Made by a program: the position numbers and the translations under genes
Part shown: positions 4,058 to 58,280 of the stretch, piece after piece
Layout of the letters: every line of letters begins with the position of its first letter
Numbering within the stretch: the first letter of the stretch is position 1
DNA from: an uncultured Candidatus Saccharibacteria bacterium
GTDB taxonomy: Bacteria > Patescibacteriota > Minisyncoccia > Sungbacterales > HO2-52-23
Assembly: GCA_964585475.1 (NCBI GenBank)
Contig: CAZPDF010000003.1
Span: 7,983 to 71,982 of the forward strand
Direction: 5' to 3'
DNA length: 64,000 nucleotides
Notes under the pieces: generated by a model
Told to the model about the DNA's origin: nothing
The model's database searches: none
Seen by the model: only the letters and a program-made list of their open reading frames with translations

Positions 4058-4127
4058 TGCTTTCATTATAAAACAAATGGCTCGCCAAAGAAAATGGCCG
4101 CAAGTATGCCCGGTAGTAACTCTTCGA

Positions 4128-4200
4128 CTGTCGAACACTCAACGTATTGAGTGCTCGACAAAAAACGGCAGTAGTCGAAGACTACTGCCGGGTATGCGGC
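4128..4200. terminator. two adjacent hairpins between convergently ending minus-strand genes
   Basis: GTCGAACACTCAA-cgtat-TTGAGTGCTCGAC is a near-perfect inverted repeat. CGGCAGTAGTC-gaa-GACTACTGCCG is a perfect one. Confidence 0.45.
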
Positions 4201-17530: not shown

Positions 17531-17565
17531 AAAAGAGGGCGCTACCCCTCCTAGTACCTATACCC

Positions 17566-17697
17566 AGTAGTAGTCTTCGGCAGTAATGTTAGGCGGCCCC
17601 GAATTTATAAGTAGAACACGGGTAACTCTAATAAGTTCTCGCGGTGAACACGCCCCTATTCTAGCGGCAAAGCTGCAGCCGAAGAGTTACTCCCGGG
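17566..17697. repeat. MITE-like element with imperfect ~20-bp terminal inverted repeats, copy 1
   Basis: 5' end ...CCAGTAGTAGTCTTCGGCAG and 3' end CTGCAGCCGAAGAGTTACTCCCGGGC are reverse complements of each other. Both termini are shared with the 21514-21697 copy. The core is different. Confidence 0.5.
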
Positions 17698-17786
17698 CAT
17701 AGAAAATCTACAAAAACTATACTAAATTATCCGGGTTCGGCCGAGTCCTGTCAATATGCTACTTATTATAACAAAATAAAAATATT

Positions 17787-20428: not shown

Positions 20429-20462
20429 CAATTGAAAATTGAAAATTGAAAATTGAAAATTG
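20429..20462. repeat. tandem octamer AATTGAAA x4 upstream of ruvC
   Basis: caATTGAAAATTGAAAATTGAAAATTGAAAATTGtg. Confidence 0.6.
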
Positions 20463-20941
20463 TGATTATATTAGGTATTGATCCCGGAACTACGTCCATC
20501 GGCTACGCAGCCATCGACGGGGAAATCGGAGAACCGCGGCTTCTTACTGCAGACCTAATCCGTATTCCCGGCGGTTCCACGCCCCAAAAGCTGTTAGATC
20601 TCCACGAGCGACTGGCCGGGATTCTGAAGGAAATGGGGCCCGACCTCGTGGCCGTTGAGCGGCTATTTTTTGCAAAGAACCAAAAAACGGCCATGGCCGT
20701 TGCCGAAGCGCGCGGAGTAATCCTGTTGACAAGTTCCCTTGCACGAATTAGGGTACTTGAGTATACTCCGCTTGAAGTTAAAAAACTGGTTGCCGGATAC
20801 GGAAACGTGGACAAAGCCCAGCTTAAAAAGGCCGTTATCCTCACCCTGCCGCAAGCAAGAAATATTAGCGGGCCGGATGACGTGTTTGATGCGATCGCCA
20901 TCGCGCTTGCCTGCTTCTACATGGAACGCCGGAAATTTTAA
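20453..20941 (+). CDS. ruvC: crossover junction endodeoxyribonuclease RuvC
   Basis: ILGIDPGTTSIGYA catalytic-Asp N-terminus and RNase H-like fold motifs. Confidence 0.9.
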   Translation: MKIVIILGIDPGTTSIGYAAIDGEIGEPRLLTADLIRIPGGSTPQKLLDLHERLAGILKEMGPDLVAVERLFFAKNQKTAMAVAEARGVILLTSSLARIRVLEYTPLEVKKLVAGYGNVDKAQLKKAVILTLPQARNISGPDDVFDAIAIALACFYMERRKF

Positions 20942-21502: not shown

Positions 21503-21513
21503 GCATGCCCGGT

Positions 21514-21697
21514 ATTAGTCTTCGACAGTAATATTATGCGGCCCCGAATTTTAAAATAGACCACATTGATTTTGTGAGGGCTTCAGAGCCGGCTCCGTCT
21601 ATCTGCGAGAAACACCCTGCCGAGAGGGTCGCCAAAGGCGAACCGGTCGAGGTTGTATTTACGGGGCAAAGCCGCAGCCGAAGAGTTACTCCCGGGC
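21514..21697. repeat. MITE-like terminal-inverted-repeat element, copy 2
   Basis: GCCCGGTATTAGTCTTCGACAG ... CGCAGCCGAAGAGTTACTCCCGGGC. Termini match copy 1; the core is longer. Confidence 0.5.
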
Positions 21698-21732
21698 GTG
21701 GATTTCGGCACTTGGCTCCACTTAAGAAATTT

Positions 21733-27022: not shown

Positions 27023-28423
27023 TTATCCATAGTAAACCTTATCTCTAACCAAGCGGATTTCCTCCTCCAGTTCAGTGTTTATTTTCAGCAAATTAGCAAT
27101 TTTTTCACAGGAGTGGATGGCCGTTGTATGGTCACGGCCGCCGAATCTTTCGCCGATGGAAGGGTAAGAGCTCTTGAGTTCGTCGCGCATCAAGTACATC
27201 GCGATTTGCCGCGGCTTCACAATATCACGCCTCCTAGAATGACTGATGAGCTCCCGTTCTTCAATATCGTAAAATTCGGACACCGCCTTCAAAATTTTCT
27301 TAGCGGACGCAAACTTTTTGGCAACGGTTTGGTGATTCGAGAGAATTTTTTTTACGGCCTCCACGTCCACGGGGGCGGAGGAGAGTTTAGCCGCCATGAC
27401 CACGCGGTTTAAGGCCCCCTCTAGCTCCCGGATGTTGGTTTTAATCACCTCGGCAACATGTTCAAGCACCGCATCCGGAAGAGAAACGGACTTGGCGGAG
27501 GCCTTGGTCTTCAGTATGAGAAGTCGGGTTTCAAAGTCAGGAAGGCCGATGTCCGCAATCATGCCTCCCTCAAACCGCGAGCGGAGGCGTTCTTCGAGGG
27601 TGGGGATCGCGCTCGGCGGCCGATCGGACGAAATAACAATCTGCTTATTTTTTTCAAATAACGAATTGAAAGTATGGAAGAATTCTTCCTGCATCTTCTC
27701 GGTCCGGGCAATAAACTGGATATCGTCGATAATAAGGAGATCAACCCCGCGGTACTTTTCTTTGAGCCGGCCCATTTCCTGGTTTTTTAACGCATCCACG
27801 ATCTCGCCCATATACTTCTCTGAAGGAACATAGCGCACGCGTATCCCCGGAGTTTTCTTTAGAAGCTCGTTACCTATGGCTTGGATCAGGTGCGTTTTAC
27901 CAAGGCCGACCCCGCCGTATATGAAAAGAGGGTTATAACTTGTGCCTGTATTTTTTATGACCGATTGGGAGGCGGCGTGTGCCAGTTCGTTAAAGGAGCC
28001 GACTATGAAATTGTCAAAAGAATACCGGGGATTAAGGTTGGTCTCCGGGTCGACCAAAAGCTCCCTCATGGAGAGCTCGTCTCCCTCGGATGGCGGCAGG
28101 GGCCCCACGCGTTTCCGTTTGGCCAGACGGTCTTTTAACGCCACGGCCACGCCTGCGCCTTCAGGTTTGCCGATAACGTAGCTCACGTCCTTGATCTCGG
28201 AGGAGATTTCCCGCAGGGCGTGAAGAATTGTCTTGTGGTATTTATTCTGCAGCCATTCCCGGGCGAATCCATTCGGAACAAAAACGGTGGCGATCCCGCC
28301 GTCCACCTCCGTAATTCCTGTCTCCTGAAACCAGGTAAGAAAACTAGGACGCGAAATATTAAGTTCGATTTTTGCCAGAACGGCTTGCCAAAGTTCGGTC
28401 TTTTCCATAAGGATCAAAAACAC
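27023..28423 (-). CDS. dnaA: chromosomal replication initiator DnaA
   Basis: AAA+ Walker A GGVGLGKTHL. C-terminal DNA-binding domain. Confidence 0.95.
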   Translation of the reverse strand: MFLILMEKTELWQAVLAKIELNISRPSFLTWFQETGITEVDGGIATVFVPNGFAREWLQNKYHKTILHALREISSEIKDVSYVIGKPEGAGVAVALKDRLAKRKRVGPLPPSEGDELSMRELLVDPETNLNPRYSFDNFIVGSFNELAHAASQSVIKNTGTSYNPLFIYGGVGLGKTHLIQAIGNELLKKTPGIRVRYVPSEKYMGEIVDALKNQEMGRLKEKYRGVDLLIIDDIQFIARTEKMQEEFFHTFNSLFEKNKQIVISSDRPPSAIPTLEERLRSRFEGGMIADIGLPDFETRLLILKTKASAKSVSLPDAVLEHVAEVIKTNIRELEGALNRVVMAAKLSSAPVDVEAVKKILSNHQTVAKKFASAKKILKAVSEFYDIEERELISHSRRRDIVKPRQIAMYLMRDELKSSYPSIGERFGGRDHTTAIHSCEKIANLLKINTELEEEIRLVRDKVYYG

Positions 28424-28591: not shown

Positions 28592-28726
28592 ATGTCCGTT
28601 ACCTATCAGCCGTCGAAAATTAAGAGAAAGCGCGCCCACGGGTTCAGGAAGCGAATGAGGGGGTCGACCGGGCGCCGAGTGCTTGCGAGACGCCGAGCCA
28701 AAAAGCGGGAGAAACTTAGCCCATGA
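28592..28726 (+). CDS. rpmH: 50S ribosomal protein L34
   Basis: [44 protein letters not shown]. Stop overlaps the rnpA start (ATGA). Not in the supplied ORF track because it is under 60 aa. Confidence 0.85.
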
Positions 28727-29055
28727 AAAAGCTCTATCGGTTGCAGGGCCACCGTGAGTTTAGGGCGCTGCTTTCTCGCGGACGCAGAAGAGATGCCCCC
28801 CTATTTCGGATTATATTCAAGCAGAGCGACCTGGTTCATTCCCGATACGCCTTTGTTGCTTCGCGCGCAGTGGACAAAAGATCTGCAGCGCGCCACCGGC
28901 TCATTCGACGCGCCAGAGAATGGGCCAGGAAGCAGCCGAGCCGGGCGGCGAGCAAGTTCGACATAGCCATTTTTTTTAAGAAAGACGCGGCGCGGGCCCC
29001 GCGTAAAATATTTTATGAAGAACTCGACAAAACATTTTCCGAAATTACTCGCTGA
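28723..29055 (+). CDS. rnpA: ribonuclease P protein component
   Basis: Basic RnpA pattern in the conserved rpmH-rnpA position. Confidence 0.85.
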
Positions 29056-29320: not shown

Positions 29321-29430
29321 GGTCGTCCTGAACGAAGTGAGGTCCCTAAGTCGCCGGAGGCGACCGGGATCCCGGCCGAAGGCCTAGGGAGAACTCGGGG
29401 CTCCTTCGTCGCTTCGCTCCTCAGGACGGC
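29321..29430. repeat. GTCATCCTGAGCG-family palindromic element (RPE-like), copy B, nested in a larger palindrome
   Basis: GTCGTCCTGAACGAAGTGAGG ... CCTTCGTCGCTTCGCTCCTCAGGACGGC. Flanked by inverted CCTAAA/TTTAGG tracts (29290-29475). Confidence 0.6.
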
Positions 29431-29477
29431 GTCCTAAGGGACGTCAGTTTAGGATCTAGTGCTTAGGATTTAGAATT

Positions 29478-30218
29478 TTGAATCCATTCAATTTTGTCTA
29501 CACAGAATTTCTATGGCGCCCGTTATTTAACGGGCTCGTTTGGCTCTATGCGGTTATTCCGCCGCACGATCTTGGCCTGGCCATTGTTATCCTAACGGTC
29601 CTGATTCGGGCTATCCTCACCCCCCTGCTTCTTCGTGCACAGAAATCACAGCGCGACTTTGCGCGCCTTCAGGGCGAGATCAAGCAGATCCAGGAAAAAT
29701 TTAAAGGGCATCGTGATGCTCAGGGAAAAGCAACAATGGAGCTTTACCAGCGTGAAAAGGTAAACCCCTTTTCGGGCTGTCTTATGGTACTTATTCAGGG
29801 CCTCGTGCTCTTTACTCTATTCCCGCTCTTTCGCCAGGCTCTGGACCCGGCCATGCTTGTCTTTCTTTACGCATTTGTGTCAAACCCCGGGCCGATGAAT
29901 ACCATAAGTTTCGGGGTTCTTGATCTTGCCCAAGCTAATCTATATTGGGGGGCGCTCGCGGCGGTAAGCCTCTATTTCCAAACCAAACTCGGCGCTCCGG
30001 CTCTTCCCGCCGCCTCCGGCCCGAACGATTTTTCCCGCATGCTGCAGAAGCAGATGCTCTACATGCTGCCGGTTATGATTTTCTTCTTTTCGATGAGTCT
30101 TCCCGTCGCCATCACGCTTTACTGGACAATTTTAAACATTCTTGGTATCGTGCAGGAGATCCTAGTACGCAAGTTCCAAATTCCAAGCGCCAAAGTACAA
30201 ACAAATTCCAAGACCTAA
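29478..30218 (+). CDS. yidC: membrane protein insertase YidC (short form)
   Basis: Five-transmembrane short YidC pattern. Follows yidD. Confidence 0.85.
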   Translation: MNPFNFVYTEFLWRPLFNGLVWLYAVIPPHDLGLAIVILTVLIRAILTPLLLRAQKSQRDFARLQGEIKQIQEKFKGHRDAQGKATMELYQREKVNPFSGCLMVLIQGLVLFTLFPLFRQALDPAMLVFLYAFVSNPGPMNTISFGVLDLAQANLYWGALAAVSLYFQTKLGAPALPAASGPNDFSRMLQKQMLYMLPVMIFFFSMSLPVAITLYWTILNILGIVQEILVRKFQIPSAKVQTNSKT

Positions 30219-30309
30219 GGCCTAAATTCCAGACACGTTTCGAAACCAGAGCGTTAGAATTTCGGTATTGTTTGTGATTTGGAATTTGTGATTCTGGATT
30301 TTAAGGAAG

Positions 30310-30765
30310 ATGGACCCGGAAATTATAAAAAACGAAATTAAGGAGGTGCTCGACAAAATGAGTTACGGCGAAGAGCTTGAAGCGATTGAGGCCCACCAAG
30401 GCACCACCAGCCGTTTTAGTGTGCGCGTCCGAGGAGAGGCCAATATGCTGATTGGCGAGCACGGAGCGAACCTCGCGGCCCTCGAGCATGTTTTGAAAAA
30501 AATAATTCAGAAAAAATACGGCGAGGGCCACAAATTTACTTTGGACATAAATGACTATCGCATGAAGCGGCTTGAGGACTTGAAGCAAGACGTAAAAGCG
30601 GCAGCGAAAGATGTAAGATTGTATCGAAAAGACGTTCCGCTGCGCGCCATGTCGTCCTTTGAGCGAAGGATTGTCCATCTTCTCCTTGCCGAATACCCCG
30701 ACATTACTACGGAATCAATCGGGCAGGAGCCGGAGCGCAGGGTGGTGATAAGGCCGTATCCATAA
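30310..30765 (+). CDS. jag: Jag/KhpB-like RNA-binding protein (KH + R3H)
   Basis: C-terminal R3H domain (FERRIVHLLLAEY). Conserved position after yidC. Confidence 0.7.
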   Translation: MDPEIIKNEIKEVLDKMSYGEELEAIEAHQGTTSRFSVRVRGEANMLIGEHGANLAALEHVLKKIIQKKYGEGHKFTLDINDYRMKRLEDLKQDVKAAAKDVRLYRKDVPLRAMSSFERRIVHLLLAEYPDITTESIGQEPERRVVIRPYP

Positions 30766-32065: not shown

Positions 32066-32548
32066 CTAAGGGCAGAACCCCGAAGCCGGAGCTGGCATGG
32101 GCGCCCCGGCCGGCTGGAGGCAGCGTAGATTTTGTACCCACCCGGCTCCGCCAACCAGGTCCGGGTTAATGGTGAACAGGATAAGATAGGAAAGCAGGGC
32201 AAGAACTAACCCCAATACGGCATTGCCCATATAATCGCGTGCGGTTTTGGCGCGCGACTCGCTGTCTCCGGCCGTAAGGTACATAATTCCTCCGATGACG
32301 AGCATGATGAGTGCGGAAATACCCACCAAACTTAAACCGAAGACATAGAGGCGGGCGAATATCTGTCCTATATCAAGCCCAACGTTTAGGAACTCAAGTC
32401 CCGGAACTTGCGCTTGCGCAATTGCGGCGAGTTCCACACAATGCCCTCCACCGCCGTTTCGGCAGGCGGCATCTACCCCAGAGCCATAAACGAATGCCGT
32501 AAAGAGGAGTACCGCGGCACCTAGATAAAAAATAGTTTTTTTCGTCAT
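32066..32548 (-). CDS. VirB2/TrbC-like type IV secretion pilin candidate
   Basis: Signal peptide followed by two hydrophobic helices separated by a short polar loop (LVGISALIMLVIGGIMYLTAGDSESRAKTARDYMGNAVLGLVLALLSYLILF). The 4-bp overlap with the upstream gene suggests one operon. Confidence 0.45.
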   Translation of the reverse strand: MTKKTIFYLGAAVLLFTAFVYGSGVDAACRNGGGGHCVELAAIAQAQVPGLEFLNVGLDIGQIFARLYVFGLSLVGISALIMLVIGGIMYLTAGDSESRAKTARDYMGNAVLGLVLALLSYLILFTINPDLVGGAGWVQNLRCLQPAGAPMPAPASGFCP

Positions 32549-33801
32549 TGCAGTATTAGGTCTATTATTTTTTCCGCCGGAGGAGCAAAGGAATTATTGC
32601 GCCCGATGCGTAAAGTTACCGAAGTTTTTCTGGCGGGCTGATTTTGGGTATCCACCGTAAGAAGGTGCGCATTTTCCGGAGAGCCGCTGATCTCATTTCC
32701 TCCGACATCCCAGACATAAGTAAGACTTTTTCTAGAGGTTACCGGAAAGAAAAATGGCTCCGCGATAAAATCCACCAGACCCCTTGTATCCGACGCAAAC
32801 GCGAAAATAGCTCGTCGCGTCTCAATGCCGCCAAGAGGCGAGGAACCATATATAACGGCGCGAGGGGTATAGGCGGGAACGAAGATTGTTTTTTCTTTGC
32901 GAATTCGCTTATTTGCGTCTTCAACGGTCAGACGGATAACGTGTGACGCGCCCGGCAAATCGGCCATTTGCACACGGAATATTTGTCTACCTACGCCAGC
33001 AAGCACGGGTTTTTGTTCGTCCAGCCCCCAACGGTAGATGAGAGTTTCCGGGCGCAGCATAACACCGCCCATTACAAATTGCGGAATTGCCGTAATCGCA
33101 ACCACTGATCCTTGCGAAGGCAGGGTCCTGCCTTTGTACCACTTGGGAACGTATGTTTCGGCGGACCACGTAACCGCGAGGTCGGATACGCGGATGGTGA
33201 GCGAGGCAGAATTTATTGTACCGTCCGGCCGCGACACGCGCACGTTCAGGGTTTCGGCTGATCCAACCCCGCCGGCAGTAAGGGCAAAGGTGTGTTTGCC
33301 GGGCCCGGAGAGATCGGAGCGGAAAACGCCGTTTACCGTCCAGGAGAAAGTTGCAAAATTCCTGTCGTAGGTCGGCATTCGCGCTTCAACCGTTATGGTT
33401 TCGCCAGGGGAAGGAGAACTTGGCGTAGCGACCACCAAGAGCGGTTCCTTAAGCTCCGAGAGCACAGAAGGATTAAATACATCCGACGGGACAGGAAAAG
33501 CGCTGGAAGGAACCTGGGGAGAGGTAGTGCCAAAAAGAGCCGAAAAGTCGGGGAGGGTTTGGGCGGACACAGCAAGGGCCACCAGGAGTCCCGCCGCCGC
33601 CAAGGCCGTTATCCACGCCCCAGAAGACCACGGGCTTGCCCGCGGACGAGTGGGTCTTCTGGAGGCGGGATTCCGCCCCTCGGCCAAGCCTGCAGGGCCT
33701 GACCGTAACGCAGGGGCACCACGGGCTTGCCCGAGGGGCTCCATTTTTGAAACCTTACGCATGTTCATATTTATTATACTTCCAAAAAGACCCGGCGTCA
33801 T
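32545..33801 (-). CDS. secreted or membrane-anchored hypothetical protein of the T4SS-like cluster
   Basis: N-terminal hydrophobic helix. Ser/Thr/Val-rich beta-rich sequence. Overlaps the VirB4 stop. Confidence 0.4.
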   Translation of the reverse strand: MTPGLFGSIINMNMRKVSKMEPLGQARGAPALRSGPAGLAEGRNPASRRPTRPRASPWSSGAWITALAAAGLLVALAVSAQTLPDFSALFGTTSPQVPSSAFPVPSDVFNPSVLSELKEPLLVVATPSSPSPGETITVEARMPTYDRNFATFSWTVNGVFRSDLSGPGKHTFALTAGGVGSAETLNVRVSRPDGTINSASLTIRVSDLAVTWSAETYVPKWYKGRTLPSQGSVVAITAIPQFVMGGVMLRPETLIYRWGLDEQKPVLAGVGRQIFRVQMADLPGASHVIRLTVEDANKRIRKEKTIFVPAYTPRAVIYGSSPLGGIETRRAIFAFASDTRGLVDFIAEPFFFPVTSRKSLTYVWDVGGNEISGSPENAHLLTVDTQNQPARKTSVTLRIGRNNSFAPPAEKIIDLILQ

Positions 33802-35633
33802 TAGGCCTTCGCGCCGGCCGCAAATTCCTCTTTGGCCTTTTTAATAAGTAAAAGCTGGGCCGGGTCAGAGGTAATAATCTGGTCTTCGGTGTAGGACCCG
33901 ATTACTTTTATCGCCACGTGCTTCAATCCGGCAAAGAATATTCCTTCCCCCCGCTCTGATTCAAGCAGGAGGAATTTTTCCTCCTCGGTCAGGTTGAAGG
34001 TTTGCATGACGAAATCAATGGTGGCGGGAGACTGCCGAAGAAGCATCTGCATGGAGGAATTGGTGATAATCGGTTTTCCGTAGGGAGAGTTAAAAAAGTC
34101 GCCCACGTCCTGCGTGACCGTGGTGAGCCCGAGATAGTACTTGCGTGCTCTTTTGGCAATGCCGAAAAGAAAAGATGCCCCGTCCTCGTGTTTCATCAAC
34201 CACCAGGCCTCGTCCACCACGAGGATCCTTTTTTTCAGGCGCGTGCGTATCTCGTTCCAAATAAACCGCAAGATAAGGAATATTCCCACCGCCCGCAGTT
34301 CGTCCTCCATGTCTCTTACGGAGAACACCACCAAGCGATTATTCATCTCGATATTGGTCGGCTGGTTGAAGAAGCCGGACCAGGTCCCGGTGGTGTATTT
34401 TTTCAGGCGCATCGCAAGATTTTCTCCGCCGGCGGTTGAGGCCAGAATCAGTTCAAGATCCGATAGGATCGGCGGAGTGATTTTCGAAAAGTCGGATTCA
34501 GGCGTGATGTCCCGCGAGGCGTAGGTTTCAGTAATTGCTTGATCAAGTATGGCATCCTCCTCGGCGGTGATCCCCCCCAGCATAATCCGGAAAAGCCCGA
34601 CCAAGTTTATGATGTTTGATCGGAGAACGTCTGACGGCGATTCATCCTCCCGAGGGACCGGAAGATCAAAAGGGTTTATGTGGTGTTTGGATGTAAGGGA
34701 GATGCCGATGTAGGAGCCGCCGACAACCTGCGCCAGATACTCATATTCTCGCTCGGGATCAATAACGATGACATCCGTATCCCACATAAGAGAGCGGATG
34801 ATTTCGAGCTTCATCAAATAGCTTTTTCCACCGCCGGAAATCCCGAAGATTACGGAATTGGCGTTGGGCAACGAGAATCGGTCAAAAAGTATCAAGCTGT
34901 TATTGTGGCGATTGATTCCGTAGAGAATGCCTTTATTTGAAGTAAGGTCAAACGACACAAACGGGAAAGTTGACGAAACGGGTGAAGAGTTGAGGTAGGT
35001 GTTGATTCCGAGTTTGTCGATGTTTAACGGGAGGACGGACTGGAAGCCCTCGGTCTGTTGGAAGAGGGCTGGCTTGGTATAGACCAGGCGCGACTCAAAA
35101 AGGGATTTAATTTCCGATTCGGTTTTATTTAGTTCCTGCTCCGAATAGCCGTAGATCGTAATATATAGGCCGAAGTTAAAAATTCTCTCAGTGGCCTGCT
35201 GGAGTTTGTCGCGGAGCTCCTCAAGGTCCTGGTGGGCGGTGTCCAGTATGGGGTCGCGGACGAGGCCCTTCTCCTCGCGCGCCGCAATCTGGGAACCCAC
35301 CTGCGCGACTTTACGGCGGAGCGTCTTTAGCATTGATCCGGTATCCACCGGATGGATGAACATAGAGACGTCGAATATTTTATCCAGATTTATAACGGGG
35401 CTGAACCAGGCCGTATGGAGGTAGCGCGGATAGGCGAAGATGAAAATGGTTCTGGCAAGTTTAGCTCCGAGGCGAATAAACGTCGGGTTGACTTCAAGCG
35501 CAGAGGGGGAGAGAACGTCTTTTAACGCAAGTTCGCCGGCCCGGTATATTTCTTCCGGGAAAACAGCAAAAATCTCCGATTCCGGATCTTTTTTAGTTTT
35601 AGTTCCAAAGAGTGAAACCACGAATATGTGCAC
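33801..35633 (-). CDS. VirB4/TrbE/CagE-family T4SS ATPase, C-terminal ATPase portion
   Basis: Walker A GISGGGKS and Walker B ILVVDEAWW. VirB4-type C-terminal domain. Begins with GTG, in frame with the upstream N-terminal ORF. Confidence 0.85.
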   Translation of the reverse strand: MHIFVVSLFGTKTKKDPESEIFAVFPEEIYRAGELALKDVLSPSALEVNPTFIRLGAKLARTIFIFAYPRYLHTAWFSPVINLDKIFDVSMFIHPVDTGSMLKTLRRKVAQVGSQIAAREEKGLVRDPILDTAHQDLEELRDKLQQATERIFNFGLYITIYGYSEQELNKTESEIKSLFESRLVYTKPALFQQTEGFQSVLPLNIDKLGINTYLNSSPVSSTFPFVSFDLTSNKGILYGINRHNNSLILFDRFSLPNANSVIFGISGGGKSYLMKLEIIRSLMWDTDVIVIDPEREYEYLAQVVGGSYIGISLTSKHHINPFDLPVPREDESPSDVLRSNIINLVGLFRIMLGGITAEEDAILDQAITETYASRDITPESDFSKITPPILSDLELILASTAGGENLAMRLKKYTTGTWSGFFNQPTNIEMNNRLVVFSVRDMEDELRAVGIFLILRFIWNEIRTRLKKRILVVDEAWWLMKHEDGASFLFGIAKRARKYYLGLTTVTQDVGDFFNSPYGKPIITNSSMQMLLRQSPATIDFVMQTFNLTEEEKFLLLESERGEGIFFAGLKHVAIKVIGSYTEDQIITSDPAQLLLIKKAKEEFAAGAKA

Positions 35634-35702
35634 TAGTTATTCACCAATAACACTAATTTACGACCTTTCTATATCCCGAGACCGTAGAAGAACCCATCTT
35701 TA

Positions 35703-35779
35703 GTTATCCTGAACGCAGTGAAGGATCTTTATTCCTCGGTATATCATACGGTTGAGGTGCTTCGCTTCGCTCAGCATGA
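35703..35779. repeat. GTCATCCTGAGCG-family palindromic element, copy C, between the two VirB4 ORFs
   Basis: GTTATCCTGAACGCAGTGAAGGA ... GCTTCGCTTCGCTCAGCATGAC. Confidence 0.65.
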
Positions 35780-35837
35780 CATTTTGAGACTCTTTTCTAC
35801 GGTTTCATCTTATCCCCGATCTGGTACATGTTCGTGG

Positions 35838-36482
35838 CTAGCTTGCGGCAGTTACCACTGCTTTCTCAAACTCCGTCGGGTTATAGAGCCCGTAGAATAG
35901 CTCGATCAGTTCCTCTGTATTCAGCGGGGCCGAGCGCACGCCAACCCGCTGGAGCCCTGCCACCACCGTATCTACCCTCTGCCAGAGCTGATTTTTGTGT
36001 TCTTCAAAAGAATCTCCTGTCCCGCCCGCCGTTTCTTTTTTGGCCAGGCCCAAGGCGGAGGTGAGTCCGCCGAGTATCCCTTTTTGTTCGAGCATCGGGG
36101 GGGTAAAGGGCACGACGGCGTAGAAAGTTTTGGACATGATGTTGGTCATCTCCACGAACGTTTTTATAAATTCCATGTATTCGGTAACCTGTATTTTTAA
36201 AAGTTCGTTGTCCTCCTCTTTCTGTCGTGTCTGTAGTGACTCAAGGTAGGGCGCGACGTTAAGGCGTCGCGAATGGACCACAAATTGCAGCGGAAAGTCG
36301 AGGGAATTCAAAAAATTCTGGTATTGGAAAATAATCGCGTCCTGTTCATCGCTTGATTTGAGAGCGAAGTTTAGCGAGGAGCACATAAGAATTACGCGAA
36401 GCCCGCCGTCTTTTAAGATGGCCGTGTCTTCCCGAACGGTTTCAATCGCCAAAAATTGTTGGGCTGATGCGCCAGTGGGCAT
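35838..36482 (-). CDS. VirB4-family N-terminal domain (separate ORF, same frame as the ATPase portion)
   Basis: REDTAILKDGGLRVILMCSSLNFALKSSDEQDAII resembles the VirB4/TraE N-terminal domain. The stop lies 204 nt upstream of the ATPase ORF's GTG start. Confidence 0.55.
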   Translation of the reverse strand: MPTGASAQQFLAIETVREDTAILKDGGLRVILMCSSLNFALKSSDEQDAIIFQYQNFLNSLDFPLQFVVHSRRLNVAPYLESLQTRQKEEDNELLKIQVTEYMEFIKTFVEMTNIMSKTFYAVVPFTPPMLEQKGILGGLTSALGLAKKETAGGTGDSFEEHKNQLWQRVDTVVAGLQRVGVRSAPLNTEELIELFYGLYNPTEFEKAVVTAAS

Positions 36483-36527: not shown

Positions 36528-36905
36528 TTAGGGACGGTGGACGATCCGCTTGTAACGGACACCGGTTTTCGAAAAAAGTGTAAGTATTCCCAAGCGCAGT
36601 TTCGCCGCCTTCAGATAGCTATAAATCTGCTTGCTGTCTTGTGCATAAAATCTGGACGCAACTTTTAATTCCAACACTATTTTATTTTCTATCAGAAAAT
36701 CTAGCCGATACTTCCCCGCCTTTTTGCCTTCGTACTCCAGCGGGATTTCGATCTCTTTTTGGTAGACCAGGCCGAGTTTATCAAATTCGTGGGCAAGCGC
36801 GCGCTGATAATACTGTTCTCTATAGCCATGCCCGAGTGTATTGAAAACCTTGAAAATCGCCCCAATTATTTTATAACTTAGTTCTTTATACAAGATTTCG
36901 GGCAT
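36528..36905 (-). CDS. GxxExxY family protein (PD-(D/E)XK-like)
   Basis: YEGKKAGKYRLDFLIENKIVLELKVASR matches the GxxExxY family core. Confidence 0.65.
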   Translation of the reverse strand: MPEILYKELSYKIIGAIFKVFNTLGHGYREQYYQRALAHEFDKLGLVYQKEIEIPLEYEGKKAGKYRLDFLIENKIVLELKVASRFYAQDSKQIYSYLKAAKLRLGILTLFSKTGVRYKRIVHRP

Positions 36906-36939: not shown

Positions 36940-37374
36940 TTATTCGCGTCTTGGTTCTTGCGTTTTCTCTTTAATATCTAAACTCCAGGCCAGATCATTA
37001 AGTTTGGATTCCGAAAGCTTGGGGATGTTTTTTATAAGGACCTCCGGTTTTTTTAATCTTTCCTCCGGTTTGGCTTTTTTGGAGGGCGGCTCCTTTTTCC
37101 AGAGGTAGAGACGCGGGCGAATCAGATAGAGCGCCGCGCTTTTTAGAATTATCGGAAAGGGCTGCTCATTTAACTTAAGGAACGCGAGGGAACCGGCCAG
37201 CGAGCCGATGATAAGGGCTGTTAGGTAGAACAGGAACCCGGTGAAGAATCGCGAGGCGATGAAAATAAGGACGGCCCCGGCCCCGAGATAAAAAAACTGT
37301 TTTATCGTGAAGGGGCCGATAACCTTGTCCTCGACCGTAATAAATTGCGGAACCTGATACTGCCTCATAAGCAA
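36940..37374 (-). CDS. small two-transmembrane-helix protein, possibly VirB3-like
   Basis: Two adjacent hydrophobic helices and a basic tail. Sits immediately upstream of VirB4, separated only by the GxxExxY gene. Confidence 0.3.
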   Translation of the reverse strand: MLMRQYQVPQFITVEDKVIGPFTIKQFFYLGAGAVLIFIASRFFTGFLFYLTALIIGSLAGSLAFLKLNEQPFPIILKSAALYLIRPRLYLWKKEPPSKKAKPEERLKKPEVLIKNIPKLSESKLNDLAWSLDIKEKTQEPRRE

Positions 37375-37477
37375 ACAAGAATATAGAACTTAGGTCTTAG
37401 AACCGGTTACGACTTTCTTATATTATCGCAGAGTTCCACGGGCTTGCCCGTGGGTATCTACATTCTCTCCGCGGCTA

Positions 37478-38437
37478 TTACTCCATCGGTTCTTTATAAG
37501 GATCATGCCCGGGGCCCTTCTCGGTAAATGGACGCTGCTCTCTCTCTACTTCTTCCGGCGCTCCGGGCATTTTTGGCGCCGCCGTTGTCTCGGGTTTTTT
37601 TTCCGGCGCGGGCGAGCGGCGAAGGGCAGAGAATATGTCTTCTTCGCGTTTCAAGGGGTCGGGTGCGGCCGGTTTAGCTTGCTGCTGGTCTCTGCCCGAC
37701 TGTCTTAAATCAAGCGGTGGAACTTTGGAGGCGCCAAAGGGAGACGGTGTTGGTTTTTCTTCTGCGGCGTTTCGCGTAGAGGATTCTCTGCCCTCGCGAT
37801 ACGGATCAAAACCCCCGTACGGAGATTTTTTTGGAGGGGGCGGGACAGCCGGCGTAACAGGAGATCCGGCTGGCTTTATTTCTTGAGCGGGGGGCTTGGG
37901 CGTCTCCGGCTTTTTTGGTACGGGCGCTGGAGAAGGCGGTACTGCTGTTGCGGCCGCGGAACTAATCGCGCTTGGTTTTTGCTGTCGCAGGTCAATAGGA
38001 GAAACCCTAGACGATGCTGGCGGAGGTTGCGATTCTTGGGTCTTTGGTGGCGAAACAACGGCATGCCTTACCAACACCTCGGACTTCTGTATTTCCTCCT
38101 CGGTCATCTCCACCTGATGAGCGGAGCGTAGGGCCTCGCGCAGGGGGTAGAAAATTTGGTGGTTTATCTCCGAGGCGATTTTTTTAGCCGTGTCCGCGTC
38201 AACGATAAGCGTACTTGCAAGCGCCTGGACAAATTCGCGGGGCTTGGTGAGCCCCATGATTACCAGCCCCGTCTCCCCGGCCGCGGCCCCCCGTTTTTCG
38301 GTGGTGAGCCCAAATTTCTTGCCGATTTCATATAGCTTATCTGCGCCTTCCACGCTTAACAAAGCGTCCTTCAGGACTTCGGGAAGTTTTTTAAATTGCT
38401 CTTCAAGCTCCTCTTTTTTGTAAGGTTTGTTTACCAT
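37478..38437 (-). CDS. proline-rich hypothetical protein with an N-terminal globular domain
   Basis: About 120 aa structured N-terminus, then a long P/S/A/K-rich low-complexity region. Confidence 0.4.
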   Translation of the reverse strand: MVNKPYKKEELEEQFKKLPEVLKDALLSVEGADKLYEIGKKFGLTTEKRGAAAGETGLVIMGLTKPREFVQALASTLIVDADTAKKIASEINHQIFYPLREALRSAHQVEMTEEEIQKSEVLVRHAVVSPPKTQESQPPPASSRVSPIDLRQQKPSAISSAAATAVPPSPAPVPKKPETPKPPAQEIKPAGSPVTPAVPPPPKKSPYGGFDPYREGRESSTRNAAEEKPTPSPFGASKVPPLDLRQSGRDQQQAKPAAPDPLKREEDIFSALRRSPAPEKKPETTAAPKMPGAPEEVEREQRPFTEKGPGHDPYKEPME

Positions 38438-38448
38438 TGGATTCGGGA

Positions 38449-40806
38449 TTACTGTAACCGCTCTCTTAGGTTTTTAATGCGGGCTTCCAGTTTTTTCACC
38501 TCGACCTCTCGTATGTTTTCTGCTTCTCGCTGCCGGTTTTGCTGGTCGAGACTTCCGGCGCGCTCTTCCAGAACCTTAAGCTGGTCTTCTAAATCCCGAA
38601 GCTGTTCCACGCGTTTTCCTATCTCCTGCTCAACGCGTTCCTGAGCTCTTTCCGTTTCGCGCGTTTCTCTTTGTGCGGCCCTTTCCTCTTCTGCTACGAT
38701 CCGCCCCGCTTCTGCCCGTTGCTCCGCCACTTGTTCACGCTGGACGGCTGTGGGCGGGGTGGCGTTTTCGGGAAGCGACAGCCCCATTTCCTGCGCGTAG
38801 TTTGAGGAAAGATAGCGGTAGGTTTCCGGCTTCATGTTAACCACCATCTGCGGTTCGAGCTCGATCCCATTCATGAATGCCTCTCTTAGCGCCGGATTTT
38901 CGCGAGCGATTCGTTTTATGTGCTCGGGATCCAGGTTCGGCACCAATATTCTTATCACGTCCATATTAAGTGCTCCGGTCGTGGGGTCCTTTATGCCCTC
39001 AAGGGACATCTTGGCCCATTCTTCGGGCTTCATTTTACGGGCCGTCTCTCTAATGGCCTCTTCTCTGGTCCGGGTATCAGGGACGAGATCGGGCGTGGCA
39101 AGATCGGGACGCGCCTTCAAAAGGTCTTTTTGCAGACCGAATTGAGTAGCCAGACGAAGGACCTGTGCTTGGTTGCCCCCGAGTTTCGAAAAGTCGCCTC
39201 TTTCTGAAAGAATCTGGGCGATGGCTACTTTATTTTCGGCCAAGGTGCTCTGGTTGAAGTCGGTTACGAGATTTTGGCTTGACCAGTTTTCGCGCCCCTT
39301 TCTTTTTTCGGTAACCCGCTGTTTCTGTGATTCAAGGTATCCGGTAACCTTTCGCGAGGCCGGTGCCGCCATCTTTCCAAGATACGGCGTTTGCGCGAGC
39401 CGCTCCTGCGCCTTGGTTATGGCGGGCGCCGCACGCCTGGCAGCCGCAGCAGCTGCCAAAGAAGCGCCGCCGGTGGCATAACCCAACCCAACAGCGGCGC
39501 CTGTTTTGGCAAGAGCTACGGCCGTATCCCCTATGGCAATGCCCATTTTTCTGCCGATGGTGATGGACGCCCATAAGAACCCGACGAATACAAAGAGGGG
39601 CAACATTAGAAGCAGGTTTCCCGCCAGGGTTGAATTTGTTCCCATGGTGGTGATGGGCCCCCGCGTCATGGCGTCAAGAATTAATAACGAAACATAAAAC
39701 AGCGCGTAGAAGGCCGGCGCAAAGAATGCCCAGCGAAGTAGGGCGTTAAGCCATTTATTCCACCAGCCCATAATGGTTGGGTTGGGTATGGCAAAAGCCA
39801 GAAAGGCAAATGGCGCGAGAATGGCAAGAAACACCATGGCAATGATTCGCGCAAGAAGCGTGGCCCAGGCGGCTATGAATGCGACAATGACCAATAGAAA
39901 AAGGAATATGGTAACTGCCAATGTCCACGACATTTTGAGGAGAATTGCGGTAGAGAGAAACCCTTTTAAAAATGCGTCTGCTGCTTCGGCGGCATACGCA
40001 ACAGCCGAGCTTGCGTTAATACATCCTTGCTGGGCGCCGGGACCCGTGGCGCTAGGATTAATTAACGCTGCCAAGCCGCAGTCAACGCTGGTGCTAGCGG
40101 GCATAGTAGGGACGCCGGTGGACACGTTGCTGGCAAGCTGTAATTTTACGCGCTCGGTAATAAATCCGGAAAGATCTCGAGGCAGAGCTTGGCGAAACGG
40201 AATGGCAATCGCATTGGCAAACCCGAAAACCGCAGAAACCATCGCCAAACTGAAATTTATCAGAAGCGCTACGATGATGATGCGGACAAGAAATTTTCTT
40301 CCACCAAGGTGCTCGATGCTGAAAATAATGGTAAAAGCAATCCAGAGAAGGATAAGAATAAAGAAAGAATTCGCAATGTCCCGCATAATCCCCCAAGCGT
40401 ACTGCACCGCGGGCATATTACTAGGATTTAGCACAACCGCGTAGAAGAAAATGTTATCAAGGATAAAGGCCTGTATGATGAGTATGCTAGATACAATCAG
40501 CTTTACTATAACCAGCATTATAAACCACAAGAGGGCGGGTATGTTGGTTGCCAGCCCGGCTGTTGCGCCAATAATGCCCGATATCCATGCGCCGATCCCG
40601 GTCGTAGGAGGTGTCGGAGCTTGCGCCAAAGCCGCAAAGGGCAACAACAATATTCCGGCAAACAATGCGCGCGCGGCGATCCGTATCAGGGGGGCAGGTT
40701 TTTTAATAGAAAGAAGCGCCATAAAAATTTTATTACGGAAAGACCGCCGTTGTGAGACGGGTAACGAGCGCGTTGGCAATAGCCACAATTGCCTCCGAAA
40801 GCTCAT
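38449..40806 (-). CDS. VirB6/TrbL-like polytopic membrane protein with a C-terminal coiled-coil extension
   Basis: Signal peptide, at least 8 transmembrane helices in the N-terminal ~480 aa, then a hydrophilic ~300 aa coiled-coil tail. Confidence 0.45.
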   Translation of the reverse strand: MSFRRQLWLLPTRSLPVSQRRSFRNKIFMALLSIKKPAPLIRIAARALFAGILLLPFAALAQAPTPPTTGIGAWISGIIGATAGLATNIPALLWFIMLVIVKLIVSSILIIQAFILDNIFFYAVVLNPSNMPAVQYAWGIMRDIANSFFILILLWIAFTIIFSIEHLGGRKFLVRIIIVALLINFSLAMVSAVFGFANAIAIPFRQALPRDLSGFITERVKLQLASNVSTGVPTMPASTSVDCGLAALINPSATGPGAQQGCINASSAVAYAAEAADAFLKGFLSTAILLKMSWTLAVTIFLFLLVIVAFIAAWATLLARIIAMVFLAILAPFAFLAFAIPNPTIMGWWNKWLNALLRWAFFAPAFYALFYVSLLILDAMTRGPITTMGTNSTLAGNLLLMLPLFVFVGFLWASITIGRKMGIAIGDTAVALAKTGAAVGLGYATGGASLAAAAAARRAAPAITKAQERLAQTPYLGKMAAPASRKVTGYLESQKQRVTEKRKGRENWSSQNLVTDFNQSTLAENKVAIAQILSERGDFSKLGGNQAQVLRLATQFGLQKDLLKARPDLATPDLVPDTRTREEAIRETARKMKPEEWAKMSLEGIKDPTTGALNMDVIRILVPNLDPEHIKRIARENPALREAFMNGIELEPQMVVNMKPETYRYLSSNYAQEMGLSLPENATPPTAVQREQVAEQRAEAGRIVAEEERAAQRETRETERAQERVEQEIGKRVEQLRDLEDQLKVLEERAGSLDQQNRQREAENIREVEVKKLEARIKNLRERLQ

Positions 40807-41645: not shown

Positions 41646-41789
41646 GTCATTCTGAGCGCAGCCGAGCGAAGCGAGTCCTGAGCGATAGCGAAGGAGCCCA
41701 TACGAGAGACCCCTCACTGCGTTCAGGGTGACACTCCATGTCAGATTCTTCACTTCGTTCAGAATGACGATCGAAGGGTTCAGGACGAC
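41646..41789. repeat. GTCATCCTGAGCG-family palindromic element, composite copy D
   Basis: GTCATTCTGAGCGCAGCCGAGCGAAGCGAGTCCTGAGCGATAGCGAAGGA ... CTTCACTTCGTTCAGAATGAC ... GGTTCAGGACGAC. Confidence 0.6.
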
Positions 41790-41820
41790 AACGTGTAAAA
41801 ACGTTTACTCACCACCAGTT

Positions 41821-51425: not shown

Positions 51426-51484
51426 AGAATGCCTTAAGTTAAAATCTCAAATCACAAATTTCAAATAACAAACTGACGCAGTGC

Positions 51485-51547
51485 GTCATCCTGAGGGAGC
51501 GAAGCGACTGAAGGAACCCTGAGTTCCTTCACTTCGTTCAGGACGAC
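51485..51547. repeat. GTCATCCTGAGCG-family palindromic element, copy F
   Basis: GTCATCCTGAGGGAGCGAAGCGACTGAAGGAACCCTGAGTTCCTTCACTTCGTTCAGGACGAC. Confidence 0.65.
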
Positions 51548-51659
51548 CTTCGGTCGGTTTGTAATTTGGTGCTTGGAATTTGGGATTTATATGGCCACCC
51601 TTATCATTTCTGGTGGCATAATCTGCAAGAGAGCTCTGGGGACCGATTAGGGCTTGGAG

Positions 51660-56269: not shown

Positions 56270-56575
56270 TTTACAATCCGCCCGGCAGGATTCGAACCCC
56301 GCACAGCAGCAAGACTGTATGCGGGGCAGGCCTGCGATTAACTCGACTGCGGCATTTACCCCGTACTAAATTTATCCGGTTCGTCCCCCGAGACTCGAAC
56401 TCGGAACCGCCGCCTTAAGAGGGAGCTGCTCTACCAATTGAGCTAGGGGCGGACACAGAATCGGGACTCTACCGCTGAGCTATGCGCGGGTTTTGAAATT
56501 TTTCGCGCCCATCAGGACTCGAACCCCAAACCTCTTGGTCCGAAGCCAAGCGCTCTGTCTTCACCCTCCCACCTT
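56270..56575 (-). other. tRNA-like units of uncertain integrity (possible Lys-CTT-like unit, truncated Arg-like duplicate, 5' partial units)
   Basis: GGATTCGAACC / GGACTCGAACC T-loop complements and canonical D-arms (TAGCTCAATTGGTAGAGC) are present. The acceptor and anticodon stems of these units do not pair cleanly when folded by eye. Confidence 0.3.
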
Positions 56576-56578
56576 TCT

Positions 56579-56652
56579 CGTCCCTGCGAGGACTCGAACC
56601 CCGAACCTCTTGCTTCGAAGGCAAGCGCTCTGTCCAGTTGAGCTACAGGGAC
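56579..56652 (-). tRNA. tRNA-Arg (anticodon TCG)
   Basis: Minus-strand fold: GTCCCTG/CAGGGAC acceptor, GCTC/GAGC D-stem, CTTGC-CTTCGAA-GCAAG anticodon arm, CGGGG-TTCGAGT-CCTCG T-arm. Confidence 0.7.
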
Positions 56653-56743: not shown

Positions 56744-58213
56744 ATGGCCCAAAAAACTTCTATTCCAGATGCAGTTAAAGAGGTGGTTGAAAAACTGCAA
56801 AATGCCGGATTTGAGGCCTATATTGTCGGTGGCTGCGTACGGGATTTGCTGCGTGGAGAAAAACCCAAGGACTGGGATGTCACGACTTCGGCGCATCCGG
56901 AGGAGATTATAAAAATCTTTCCGGAGAGTTTTTATGAGAATAAGTTTTTGACGGTAACGGTAAAGACGGGGTCGGAGGACCAGACGCTTCGCGAAATCGA
57001 AATAACGACGTTTCGCGCCGAGGGGAAATATACGGACAAACGACACCCGGACGAGATAAGATTTGCCAAAACGCTCGAGGAGGATTTGTCCCGCCGTGAT
57101 TTTACGATTAACGCAATGGCGATGGATGCGGAGGACAATTCAACCGACCCTTTTGAAGGACAAGCGGATTTGAAGAAAAAAATTGTCCGCGCGGTAGGAG
57201 AGCCGGAGAAACGTTTTGATGAAGATGCCCTGCGGATGATGCGGGGTGTGCGCCTCGCGACCGAATTAAATTTTACTATAGAGGAAGAGACGGAGCGCGC
57301 GATTAAGAAATTGGCCGGCAACCTTCAATTTATCGCCAAAGAGCGAATCCGCGACGAGCTAGTTAAAATTATCGGAACTCCCCACGCGCGGGAAGGTATT
57401 GAGCTGCTCCACGAACTCGGACTCCTCAAATTTATAATTCCCGAACTTGAAGAAGGAATCGGAGTTGAGAATCGTCCAAGGGTTTTTACCATTTGGGAGC
57501 ACAACTTAAAAGCGTTGGAATACGGGGCAAAGACCAAATTCCCGCTTGATGTTAAGATCGCGGCCATGCTCCATGATGCTGGGAAGCCCCGCACCAAAGG
57601 CCCCATGAAAAATAACGAGTGGACTTTTTATGGGCACGATGTTGTGGGAAGCCGAATGGCGGCAGCCCTTCTCTTGCGGCTGCATTTTCCGCGGGAAACC
57701 GTAGAAAAAATATCAACGCTCATTCGCTGGCACCTTTTCAAGTACGACCCCGATGAGGGCATTACCGATTCTTCGATCCGCCGCCTGATCCGCAGAGTCG
57801 CGCCGGAAAATATGGATGATCTGGTCAAGCTTCGTATCTGCGACCGCATGGGCATGGGGGTTCCCAAGGCCGTTCCCTACCGACTGCGACACTTCCAATT
57901 CCGGGTTGAGAAAATTTTGCGGGAAGAAGAGACGCCGACACCAAAAATGCTCAAAGTGAACGGCGACGATATTATGAAAACTTTGGGAATCGAGCCGGGA
58001 CCGAAAGTCGGACATGTTCTTGAGGTGTTGCTACAAGAAGTAATTGATGAGCCCGTAAAGAATAGCCGTGAAAGTTTAGAATCGAGAATCAAGAATTTGG
58101 GGAAGCTCGAGGATAAGGAGCTCGTGAAGCTTGCCGAAGATGCCGAATCGAAAGTGGAAATGGTAGAAGATGAGCGAGTTTCGAAAATAAAGCAAAAGTA
58201 TTGGGTTAAATGA
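56744..58213 (+). CDS. cca: CCA-adding tRNA nucleotidyltransferase with HD domain
   Basis: AYIVGGCVRDLLRGEKPKDWDV Pol-beta nucleotidyltransferase motif and a downstream HD domain (MLHDAGK). Confidence 0.8.
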   Translation: MAQKTSIPDAVKEVVEKLQNAGFEAYIVGGCVRDLLRGEKPKDWDVTTSAHPEEIIKIFPESFYENKFLTVTVKTGSEDQTLREIEITTFRAEGKYTDKRHPDEIRFAKTLEEDLSRRDFTINAMAMDAEDNSTDPFEGQADLKKKIVRAVGEPEKRFDEDALRMMRGVRLATELNFTIEEETERAIKKLAGNLQFIAKERIRDELVKIIGTPHAREGIELLHELGLLKFIIPELEEGIGVENRPRVFTIWEHNLKALEYGAKTKFPLDVKIAAMLHDAGKPRTKGPMKNNEWTFYGHDVVGSRMAAALLLRLHFPRETVEKISTLIRWHLFKYDPDEGITDSSIRRLIRRVAPENMDDLVKLRICDRMGMGVPKAVPYRLRHFQFRVEKILREEETPTPKMLKVNGDDIMKTLGIEPGPKVGHVLEVLLQEVIDEPVKNSRESLESRIKNLGKLEDKELVKLAEDAESKVEMVEDERVSKIKQKYWVK

Positions 58214-58280
58214 AGCTCCACGGGCAAGCCCGTGGTCTTCTGGCGCGTGGATAAAAAAAGCACCCGCTGGGGGTGCTACG

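Follow-up and report, generated by a model that had tools for sequence, protein, structure and literature searches.

A Two-Gene VirB4 with a REP-like Palindrome in Its Spacer in a Type IV Secretion Cluster of a Sungbacterales Genome

This study examined the virB4 locus in a 64,000-nucleotide (nt) stretch of DNA, hereafter the window, from contig CAZPDF010000003.1 (assembly GCA_964585475.1) of an uncultured Candidatus Saccharibacteria bacterium placed by GTDB in the Sungbacterales. In this locus, a small open reading frame (ORF) for an N-terminal part of VirB4 and a large ORF for its ATPase part are separated by a spacer that carries a palindromic repeat. An earlier note, made from the sequence of the window, had left two options, namely that the insertion had split and inactivated VirB4, or that VirB4 is made as two polypeptides. 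Only the second is supported by our comparison, in which the split proved to be general in relatives that lack the element. We therefore read the locus, with a probability of about 0.9, as a functional two-polypeptide VirB4 in an ordinary Patescibacteria type IV secretion system (T4SS) cluster, with the repeat as a passenger in a spacer that existed before it. The two-gene architecture of a TrsD-like gene followed by virB4 is already known (PMC12102498); for the present locus, our data show that VirB4 is encoded by two genes, that this form is conserved, where the split lies, and that the repeat was inserted in a lineage-specific manner.

The Split in Related Genomes

The arrangement described by the earlier note was recovered in full. 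A 214-amino-acid (aa) ORF (36482..35838) and a 610-aa ORF (35633..33801) lie on the minus strand in the same frame, 204 nt apart (35634-35837), and the gap contains four in-frame stop codons beyond the one that ends the upstream ORF, as well as the palindromic element, whose core arms are given in Table 1. The Logan assembly of SRR8863434 was 100% identical to the window over 3486 bp, including the whole spacer. Because this independent assembly is identical across the spacer, an assembly artefact at the gap is unlikely.

We compared the locus with about 80 related metagenome loci (45-78% identity). Wherever both genes are present, the N-domain gene ends in a stop codon and the ATPase has an ORF of its own, and loci with spacers of 1-37 nt and no palindrome also have two genes. 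The median length of the spacers between the N-domain and ATPase genes (N-C spacers) is 36 nt, the extremes being short overlaps and 265 nt. The complete Candidatus Sungiibacteriota genome CP066690 has a gene for 213 aa and, 20 nt beyond its end, an ATPase gene for 602 aa, and a 163-kb groundwater contig has the same gene order with an N-C spacer of 33 nt. The spacers of the two closest relatives (83% and 79% identity) measure 37 and 67 nt and do not contain the element of the window. The junction thus falls where related organisms are naturally split, a result that the earlier note had set down beforehand as speaking against a split caused by the insertion.

The two genes stand in relative frame 0, 1 or 2 in the related loci and, since all three frames occur, the shared frame of the two window ORFs is a coincidence. 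The closest homologues all come from Patescibacteria/Parcubacteria metagenome bins, such as those of Sungiibacteriota with 73% (N-domain) and 85% (ATPase) identity. Both window ORFs are intact, and the number of nonsynonymous substitutions per site (dN) is 0.11-0.21 against relatives, with saturated synonymous sites, so that a proper dN/dS ratio (nonsynonymous over synonymous) is not computable. Low dN values at a distance where synonymous sites are saturated indicate long-term purifying selection on both ORFs.

Assignment of the Two Proteins

The earlier note had recognized a VirB4-type N-terminal domain in the small ORF and a Walker A/B ATPase domain in the large one, and profile models agree with it on both, as does a predicted fold on the small ORF. 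Two VirB4 models of NCBIfam matched the small ORF with their N-terminal portions, NF045975 at positions 129-233 of 894 (E = 7e-8) and NF045971 at positions 26-115 of 752. An AlphaFold model made with 36 homologues had a predicted local distance difference test (pLDDT) score of 84.8, and a fold search with it returned TrwK/VirB4 chains of the R388 T4SS as all of the top 12 PDB matches, with probabilities of 0.97-1.0 and a TM score of 0.47 over about 200 columns. A local Pfam scan gave no match to the small ORF, the PF26593 model being apparently missing from that Pfam copy; PF26593 (TraC-like) is listed in precomputed tables for this protein and all of its homologues. A search of PDB sequences with the N-domain profile produced chance matches only.

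Homologues of the small ORF are almost always stand-alone proteins. Among 4,438 matches, the best 120 (70-83% identity) were stand-alone without exception (120/120), with lengths of 211-227 aa. When the best 150 representatives of 50%-identity clusters were considered, a single one was fused to the ATPase (797 aa) and 149 were not; those representatives of 300-440 aa that were inspected have the same domain followed by only a low-complexity tail. Taken together, the comparisons and the structural model point to the small ORF as the N-terminal part of VirB4, encoded by a gene of its own.

The large ORF passes NF045971, the model of the VirB4-like conjugal transfer ATPase of the CD1110 family, with 354 bits against a cut-off of 325 (positions 183-733 of 752). 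Further matches are TIGR00929 VirB4_CagE (E = 7e-35), the solved C-terminal domain of VirB4 (4AG5, E = 2e-42), and R388 TrwK (E = 4e-7), and the ORF contains the motifs GISGGGKS (Walker A) and ILVVDEAW (Walker B). Its identity to the ATPases of the related loci L001 and L004 is 82-85%. About 230 residues precede the 4AG5-type domain within this ORF; the break lies inside the classical VirB4 N-terminal region, the second half of which is kept by the ATPase ORF. A single polypeptide of VirB4 length (~750-820 aa) is not encoded here, as a stop codon and the spacer lie between the two ORFs. Partners of a T4SS are present, with a PrgI gene directly upstream and a T4SS_pilin gene downstream.

The Junction and the Start of the ATPase Gene

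Concerning the junction, the fused 797-aa protein, which belongs to Candidatus Colwellbacteria and has three database members, served as the reference. Residues 1-207 of the N-domain protein align to its residues 1-214, and residues 32-602 of the ATPase align to residues 225-796. The alignment proposed by the earlier note thus revealed nothing missing at the junction; in place of the 10-residue linker of the fused protein, the two-gene form even has some 28 residues more.

Splitting or fusion of this type of VirB4 gene has apparently happened repeatedly. Firmicutes plasmids show both states: a fused 881-aa protein is encoded downstream of PrgI on Clostridium baratii pNPD11_1 (L210, 3908-6553), and a Pontibacillus megaplasmid (L209, 4884-7563) has a split form of 274 aa and 621 aa with an 11-nt overlap. 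The tblastn search also matched haloarchaeal plasmids.

The N-terminal head of the ATPase (M-x-L-F-G-K-K...FPEEIYR-GELALKDVL), with a start of the form M-[A/S/V]-L-F-G/Q-K-K..., is kept in all relatives, and the public gene call for the ATPase is 606 aa. Because the alignment of this head and the public call agree, the second GTG (35621) is the most likely start of the gene, and the spacer then measures 216 nt. The earlier note had seen the GTG start as fitting a secondary initiation. This view did not hold, since GTG is also used by relatives with 22-nt spacers and no palindrome.

The Palindromic Element in the Spacer

The element is an imperfect palindrome. Its outer inverted repeat is formed by ACCGTAGAA / TTCTACGGT and occupies about 35681-35692 and 35792-35803. 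Related copies occur in the window at 418-477, 29322-29431, 41646-41790 (nested), and 51484-51549, giving five sites in the 64-kb window, four of which lie between long ORFs. The RNA fold of 35675-35810 has a free energy of -38.4 kcal/mol (z = -2.6), and the hairpins formed by copies of the family have z values of -2 to -3.1. The virB4-spacer copy, which looks decayed, folds among the weakest, its core reaching z = -1.95 and the spacer as a whole -1.4 to -1.6. About half of the family's arms have the tetranucleotide CGTC, which neither arm of the copy at 35703-35780 shows.

Searches for a known RNA family gave no assignment. Rfam searches yielded only a chance match to uup (13.8 bits) in 35500-36000 at E <= 10, nothing credible for two better copies of the element, and only tRNAs in the whole window at gathering thresholds. 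A scan for consensus promoters and terminators detected none in the spacer, including no T-tract terminator, and no excess over shuffled sequences in the region.

The same palindrome family is present in N-C spacers of three related loci, L018 (with the same kind of outer repeat), L012, and L020. The 25-nt arm motif GTCATYCTGARCGNAGYGAAGRATC has a far wider distribution and was found nearly identical in at least 120 genome contigs (L089-L208) from at least 12 bacterial phyla, among them Nitrospirota, Chloroflexota, Acidobacteriota, Bacteroidota, Firmicutes, Planctomycetota, Omnitrophota, Saccharibacteria, and Gracilibacteria. In many cases, an inverted partner stands 15-230 nt from it. This spread across phyla is the sole aspect of the locus that we consider worth further work.

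In a literature search for this element in candidate phyla radiation (CPR) genomes, only a general paper on tagged repetitive extragenic palindromic (REP) elements was found (Di Nocera et al. 2013, PMC3733652). The REP element is the closest described kind, possibly in its CGTC-tagged class. Like the repeats of that paper, the window family consists of short imperfect palindromes that recur within a genome, mostly between co-directional genes and in part as nested or dimeric copies. The CGTC with which about half of its arms begin lies partly inside the stem and is not an unpaired tag. Unlike typical species-specific REPs, the family has an arm motif that occurs in at least 12 phyla, and no RAYT or other transposase has been tied to it, no search aimed at one having been made.

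Comparison with Known Systems

The staphylococcal conjugative plasmids pGO1 and pSK41, which carry T4SSs of the MPF_FATA class, have the same succession of a VirB3-like gene, a VirB4-N homologue of about 215-227 aa, and an ATPase of about 606-672 aa. In pSK41, the VirB3-like gene is followed by trsD (227 aa), a 14-nt spacer, and the traE/trsE ATPase gene (672 aa), and the split point is the same, residue 35 of the window ATPase aligning to residue 36 of TraE (E = 5e-41). The comparison of a 36-sequence N-domain profile with pSK41 TrsD by hhalign gave a weak alignment that runs from end to end, with E = 3.1e-4 and a probability of 39% over 174 columns (6-201 against 33-217). The small ORF is the equivalent of TrsD in position and role, and strict membership in the TrsD family is unsupported. 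Unlike in pSK41, the cluster of the window is chromosomal, lies next to dnaA, and has a 216-nt spacer with a palindrome instead of 14 nt.

Of all T4SS components in the Patescibacteria, TrsD is the most abundant according to Quiñonero-Coronel et al. 2025 (Microb Genom 11:001409; PMC12102498), who counted 2,272 homologues, 1,664 of them associated with virB4, listed the TrsD homologue of Southlakia epibionticum as essential, and described T4SS clusters as often located near dnaA. The window agrees with this description in its VirB4 of putative MPF_FATA ancestry, the adjacent TrsD homologue, PrgI/VirB3, the VirB2-like pilin, and the chromosomal position of the cluster near dnaA. There is no essential difference; repeat elements in the trsD-virB4 spacer are unmentioned in that paper.

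One-piece VirB4 proteins, such as TrwK of R388, the CD1110 family, and the fused forms of Colwellbacteria and Clostridium baratii pNPD11_1, are collinear with the two window ORFs taken together, and the fold predicted for the small ORF resembles the N-terminal region of TrwK. Unlike these, the window encodes two polypeptides, and the ATPase has a head of its own of about 30 residues in place of the 10-residue linker of the fused form.

The finding matters for the annotation of CPR/Patescibacteria genomes, in which a seemingly truncated VirB4 beside a small upstream ORF represents neither a pseudogene nor an insertion event, but the conserved two-gene form. In at least one cultured member, the T4SS with TrsD and VirB4 is reported to be essential to life as an epibiont (PMC12102498).

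Alternative Explanations and Proposed Mechanism

The disruption of a one-piece virB4 by the palindrome, leaving a pseudogene in two fragments, is suggested by the common frame of the ORFs, their sum of about 820 aa, and the dispersal of the spacer repeat in the genome. It is nevertheless very unlikely, since all relatives examined have the split although they lack the element, with each of the three relative frames represented, the stop of the N-domain gene and the head and start of the ATPase are conserved, the junction exceeds the linker of the fused relative by about 28 residues and does not fall short of it, and neither ORF is damaged, both being conserved. Even less credit can be given to an artefact, that is, a frameshift or chimeric join in a truly contiguous gene. 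The contig is metagenome-assembled and repeats can mis-assemble, but the Logan assembly is identical across the gap, four in-frame stops plus that of the upstream ORF do not amount to one frameshift, and hundreds of independent assemblies, a complete genome among them, show the same two genes. The 204 nt might also be removed or skipped, as a small intron or by translational bypass, to give a single VirB4 polypeptide, in keeping with the shared frame of the flanking ORFs and the folding of the spacer as one long hairpin. This is hardly conceivable, since no intron or other Rfam family matched at E <= 10, the fold of the whole gap is unexceptional (z = -1.4), the two genes of relatives are in other frames, overlap, or are parted by unrelated sequences, and the element family also occupies spacers between unrelated genes.

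A hairpin that was inserted by chance might now be used as an mRNA stabilizer, attenuator, or processing site that sets the ratio of the two VirB4 parts. N-C spacers are at least 60 nt long in 29 of 75 related loci, 21 of the 26 distinct long ones fold much better than shuffled sequences (z < -2) and carry at least four or five unrelated palindrome families, and REPs are thought to act as RNA elements downstream of coding regions (PMC3733652). However, the PrgI-N and ATPase-next-gene spacers are as often expanded and hairpin-rich (median lengths of 50 and 71 nt, that of N-C being 36 nt), 13 of 18 long PrgI-N spacers also having z < -2; many relatives, including the closest, have no hairpin; and the window copy is among the weakest folders (z = -1.6), looks decayed, and has no T-tract terminator. 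We regard such a use as unlikely; nothing sets this hairpin apart. A related proposal would make the palindrome an uncharacterized hairpin element of bacteria at large, with either this element or the unrelated palindromes that fill the N-C spacer in about a third of relatives having been recruited to uncouple and tune the expression of the two VirB4 halves; this we consider doubtful.

The same counts were used to ask whether the N-C spacer is a special insertion hotspot, which was ruled out, as the neighboring spacers are equally often expanded and hairpin-rich. That the N-C boundary behaves like the other intergenic spacers of the operon adds to the evidence for an old gene boundary.

Several points weigh against the reading of the locus as a functional two-gene VirB4 with a passenger repeat. 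We infer the transcription through the hairpin, the use of the GTG start, and the assembly of the two proteins, and a 216-nt hairpin spacer abolishes any translational coupling that relatives with short spacers may use. A Shine-Dalgarno-like GGTGA stands only before the first GTG (35633), with none before the second GTG that homology supports. The dN/dS estimate is blind to the time since the insertion, which leaves room for a very recent loss of function. Further, the hhalign probability to TrsD is only 39%, and the TrsD/TraD model NF041427 scores 21 bits against a cut-off of 200 (E = 2.4e-4, positions 16-127 of 201).

Under the reading as a two-gene VirB4, the fission in the inter-domain linker is old and common to the pGO1/pSK41 subclass of Gram-positive conjugation systems (TrsD + TrsE/TraE). 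A REP-like repeat, one of several families in the spacers of this genome, was later inserted into the short spacer, which grew from some tens of nt to a length of 204-216 nt. Both VirB4 genes are most likely co-transcribed with the PrgI gene and most likely translated separately, the ATPase from its own GTG, and the two products may assemble non-covalently into a VirB4-like unit at the membrane.

Neighboring Genes and Other Repeats

Table 1. Features at and around the two virB4 genes, with further repeat families of the window.
Feature	Position	Strand	Remarks
785-aa polytopic membrane protein gene, upstream conserved cluster	38449-40806	-	position as 832-854-aa genes of L001, L004
319-aa proline-rich protein gene, upstream conserved cluster	37478-38437	-	position as 233-330-aa genes of L001, L004
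PrgI-family (VirB3-like) small membrane protein gene	36940..37374	-	Pfam PF12666 PrgI, E = 7.7e-6
PD-(D/E)XK_3 ("GxxExxY") gene	36528..36905	-	Pfam PF13366, E = 1.6e-32
TrsD-like gene	35838..36482	-	214 aa, ATG start; homologue of first ~210 VirB4 residues
Spacer between the two VirB4 genes	35622..35837	-	216 nt to second GTG; 204 nt to first GTG (35633)
REP-like imperfect palindrome	~35678-35806	.	core arms 35703-35727 and 35754-35780, plus outer inverted repeat
VirB4-type ATPase gene	33801..35621	-	606 aa from GTG 35621; alternative GTG 35633 gives 610 aa
Downstream conserved cluster genes	32066..33570	-	~330-aa protein of unknown function and T4SS pilin-like protein (32066-32548); boundary 33570 approximate
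Second palindromic family (CCACGGGCTTGCCCGTGG core)	33609-33646, 33712-33746, 37429-37453, 58208-58254		
Third palindromic family (ATGCCCGGTAGTAACTCTTCG...CGAAG..TACTACCGGGCAT)	4105-4197, 17560-17703, 21505-21702		
Short-unit arrays (6-7 nt, e.g. AATTGAA, GGTAGTT)	190-233, 20430-20475, 30171-30304, 51439-51588, 62837-62880		tandem or inverted, intergenic

The PrgI gene is the first of a virB3 - trsD-like - virB4 core and has the same position in the relatives L001, L004, and L087 and in pSK41. Between it and the TrsD-like gene sits the PD-(D/E)XK_3 gene, which is absent from the corresponding spacer of L001, L004, L086, and L087; it is a lineage-specific passenger and no part of the T4SS. This spacer is mostly 1-100 nt in relatives and reaches at least 400 nt in 10 of 72. 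A 23S_rRNA_IVP/bAvd gene was observed in another spacer of the same cluster in L004. Small selfish genes seem to colonize the spacers of the T4SS cluster.

Downstream of the ATPase gene, the gene order is kept in L001, L004, and L086, and the pilin-like protein matches Pfam PF18895 (T4SS_pilin). The ORF at 32545..33801, whose ATG overlaps the stop codon of the ATPase gene, has 418 aa here against 327-331 aa in relatives, and its 5' part contains two copies of the second palindromic family. Because of the shorter relatives and these repeats at 33609-33746, its first ~80 codons are probably non-coding spacer. Upstream, the 785-aa and 319-aa proteins had no Pfam or NCBIfam match, and an assignment of the 785-aa protein to VirB6 is unsupported. 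No relaxase was found among the ORFs at 27-43 kb, the part of the window covered by the general Pfam and NCBIfam scans.

The cluster is adjoined by dnaA (27023-28423, minus strand), rnpA (28723-29055, plus), yidC (29478-30218, plus), and jag/R3H (30310-30765, plus), and is therefore origin-proximal, as in many Patescibacteria (PMC12102498).

Other repeat families of the window also occupy spacers of relatives. A copy of the third palindromic family fills the N-C spacer in L045 (4636-4841), and short-unit palindromes of the same kind as the arrays in Table 1 fill spacers of many relatives (L014, L016, L033, L042, L044, L059, and L087). The locus illustrates how palindromic repeats and small selfish genes settle in the spacers of a reduced genome and leave the operon undisturbed.

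Farther along the window, two tRNA genes with Rfam matches lie about 130 nt apart on the minus strand (56380-56452 and 56579-56652). A 61-nt direct repeat with 82% identity (56499-56559 and 56574-56634) overlaps the second tRNA gene and the spacer between the two.

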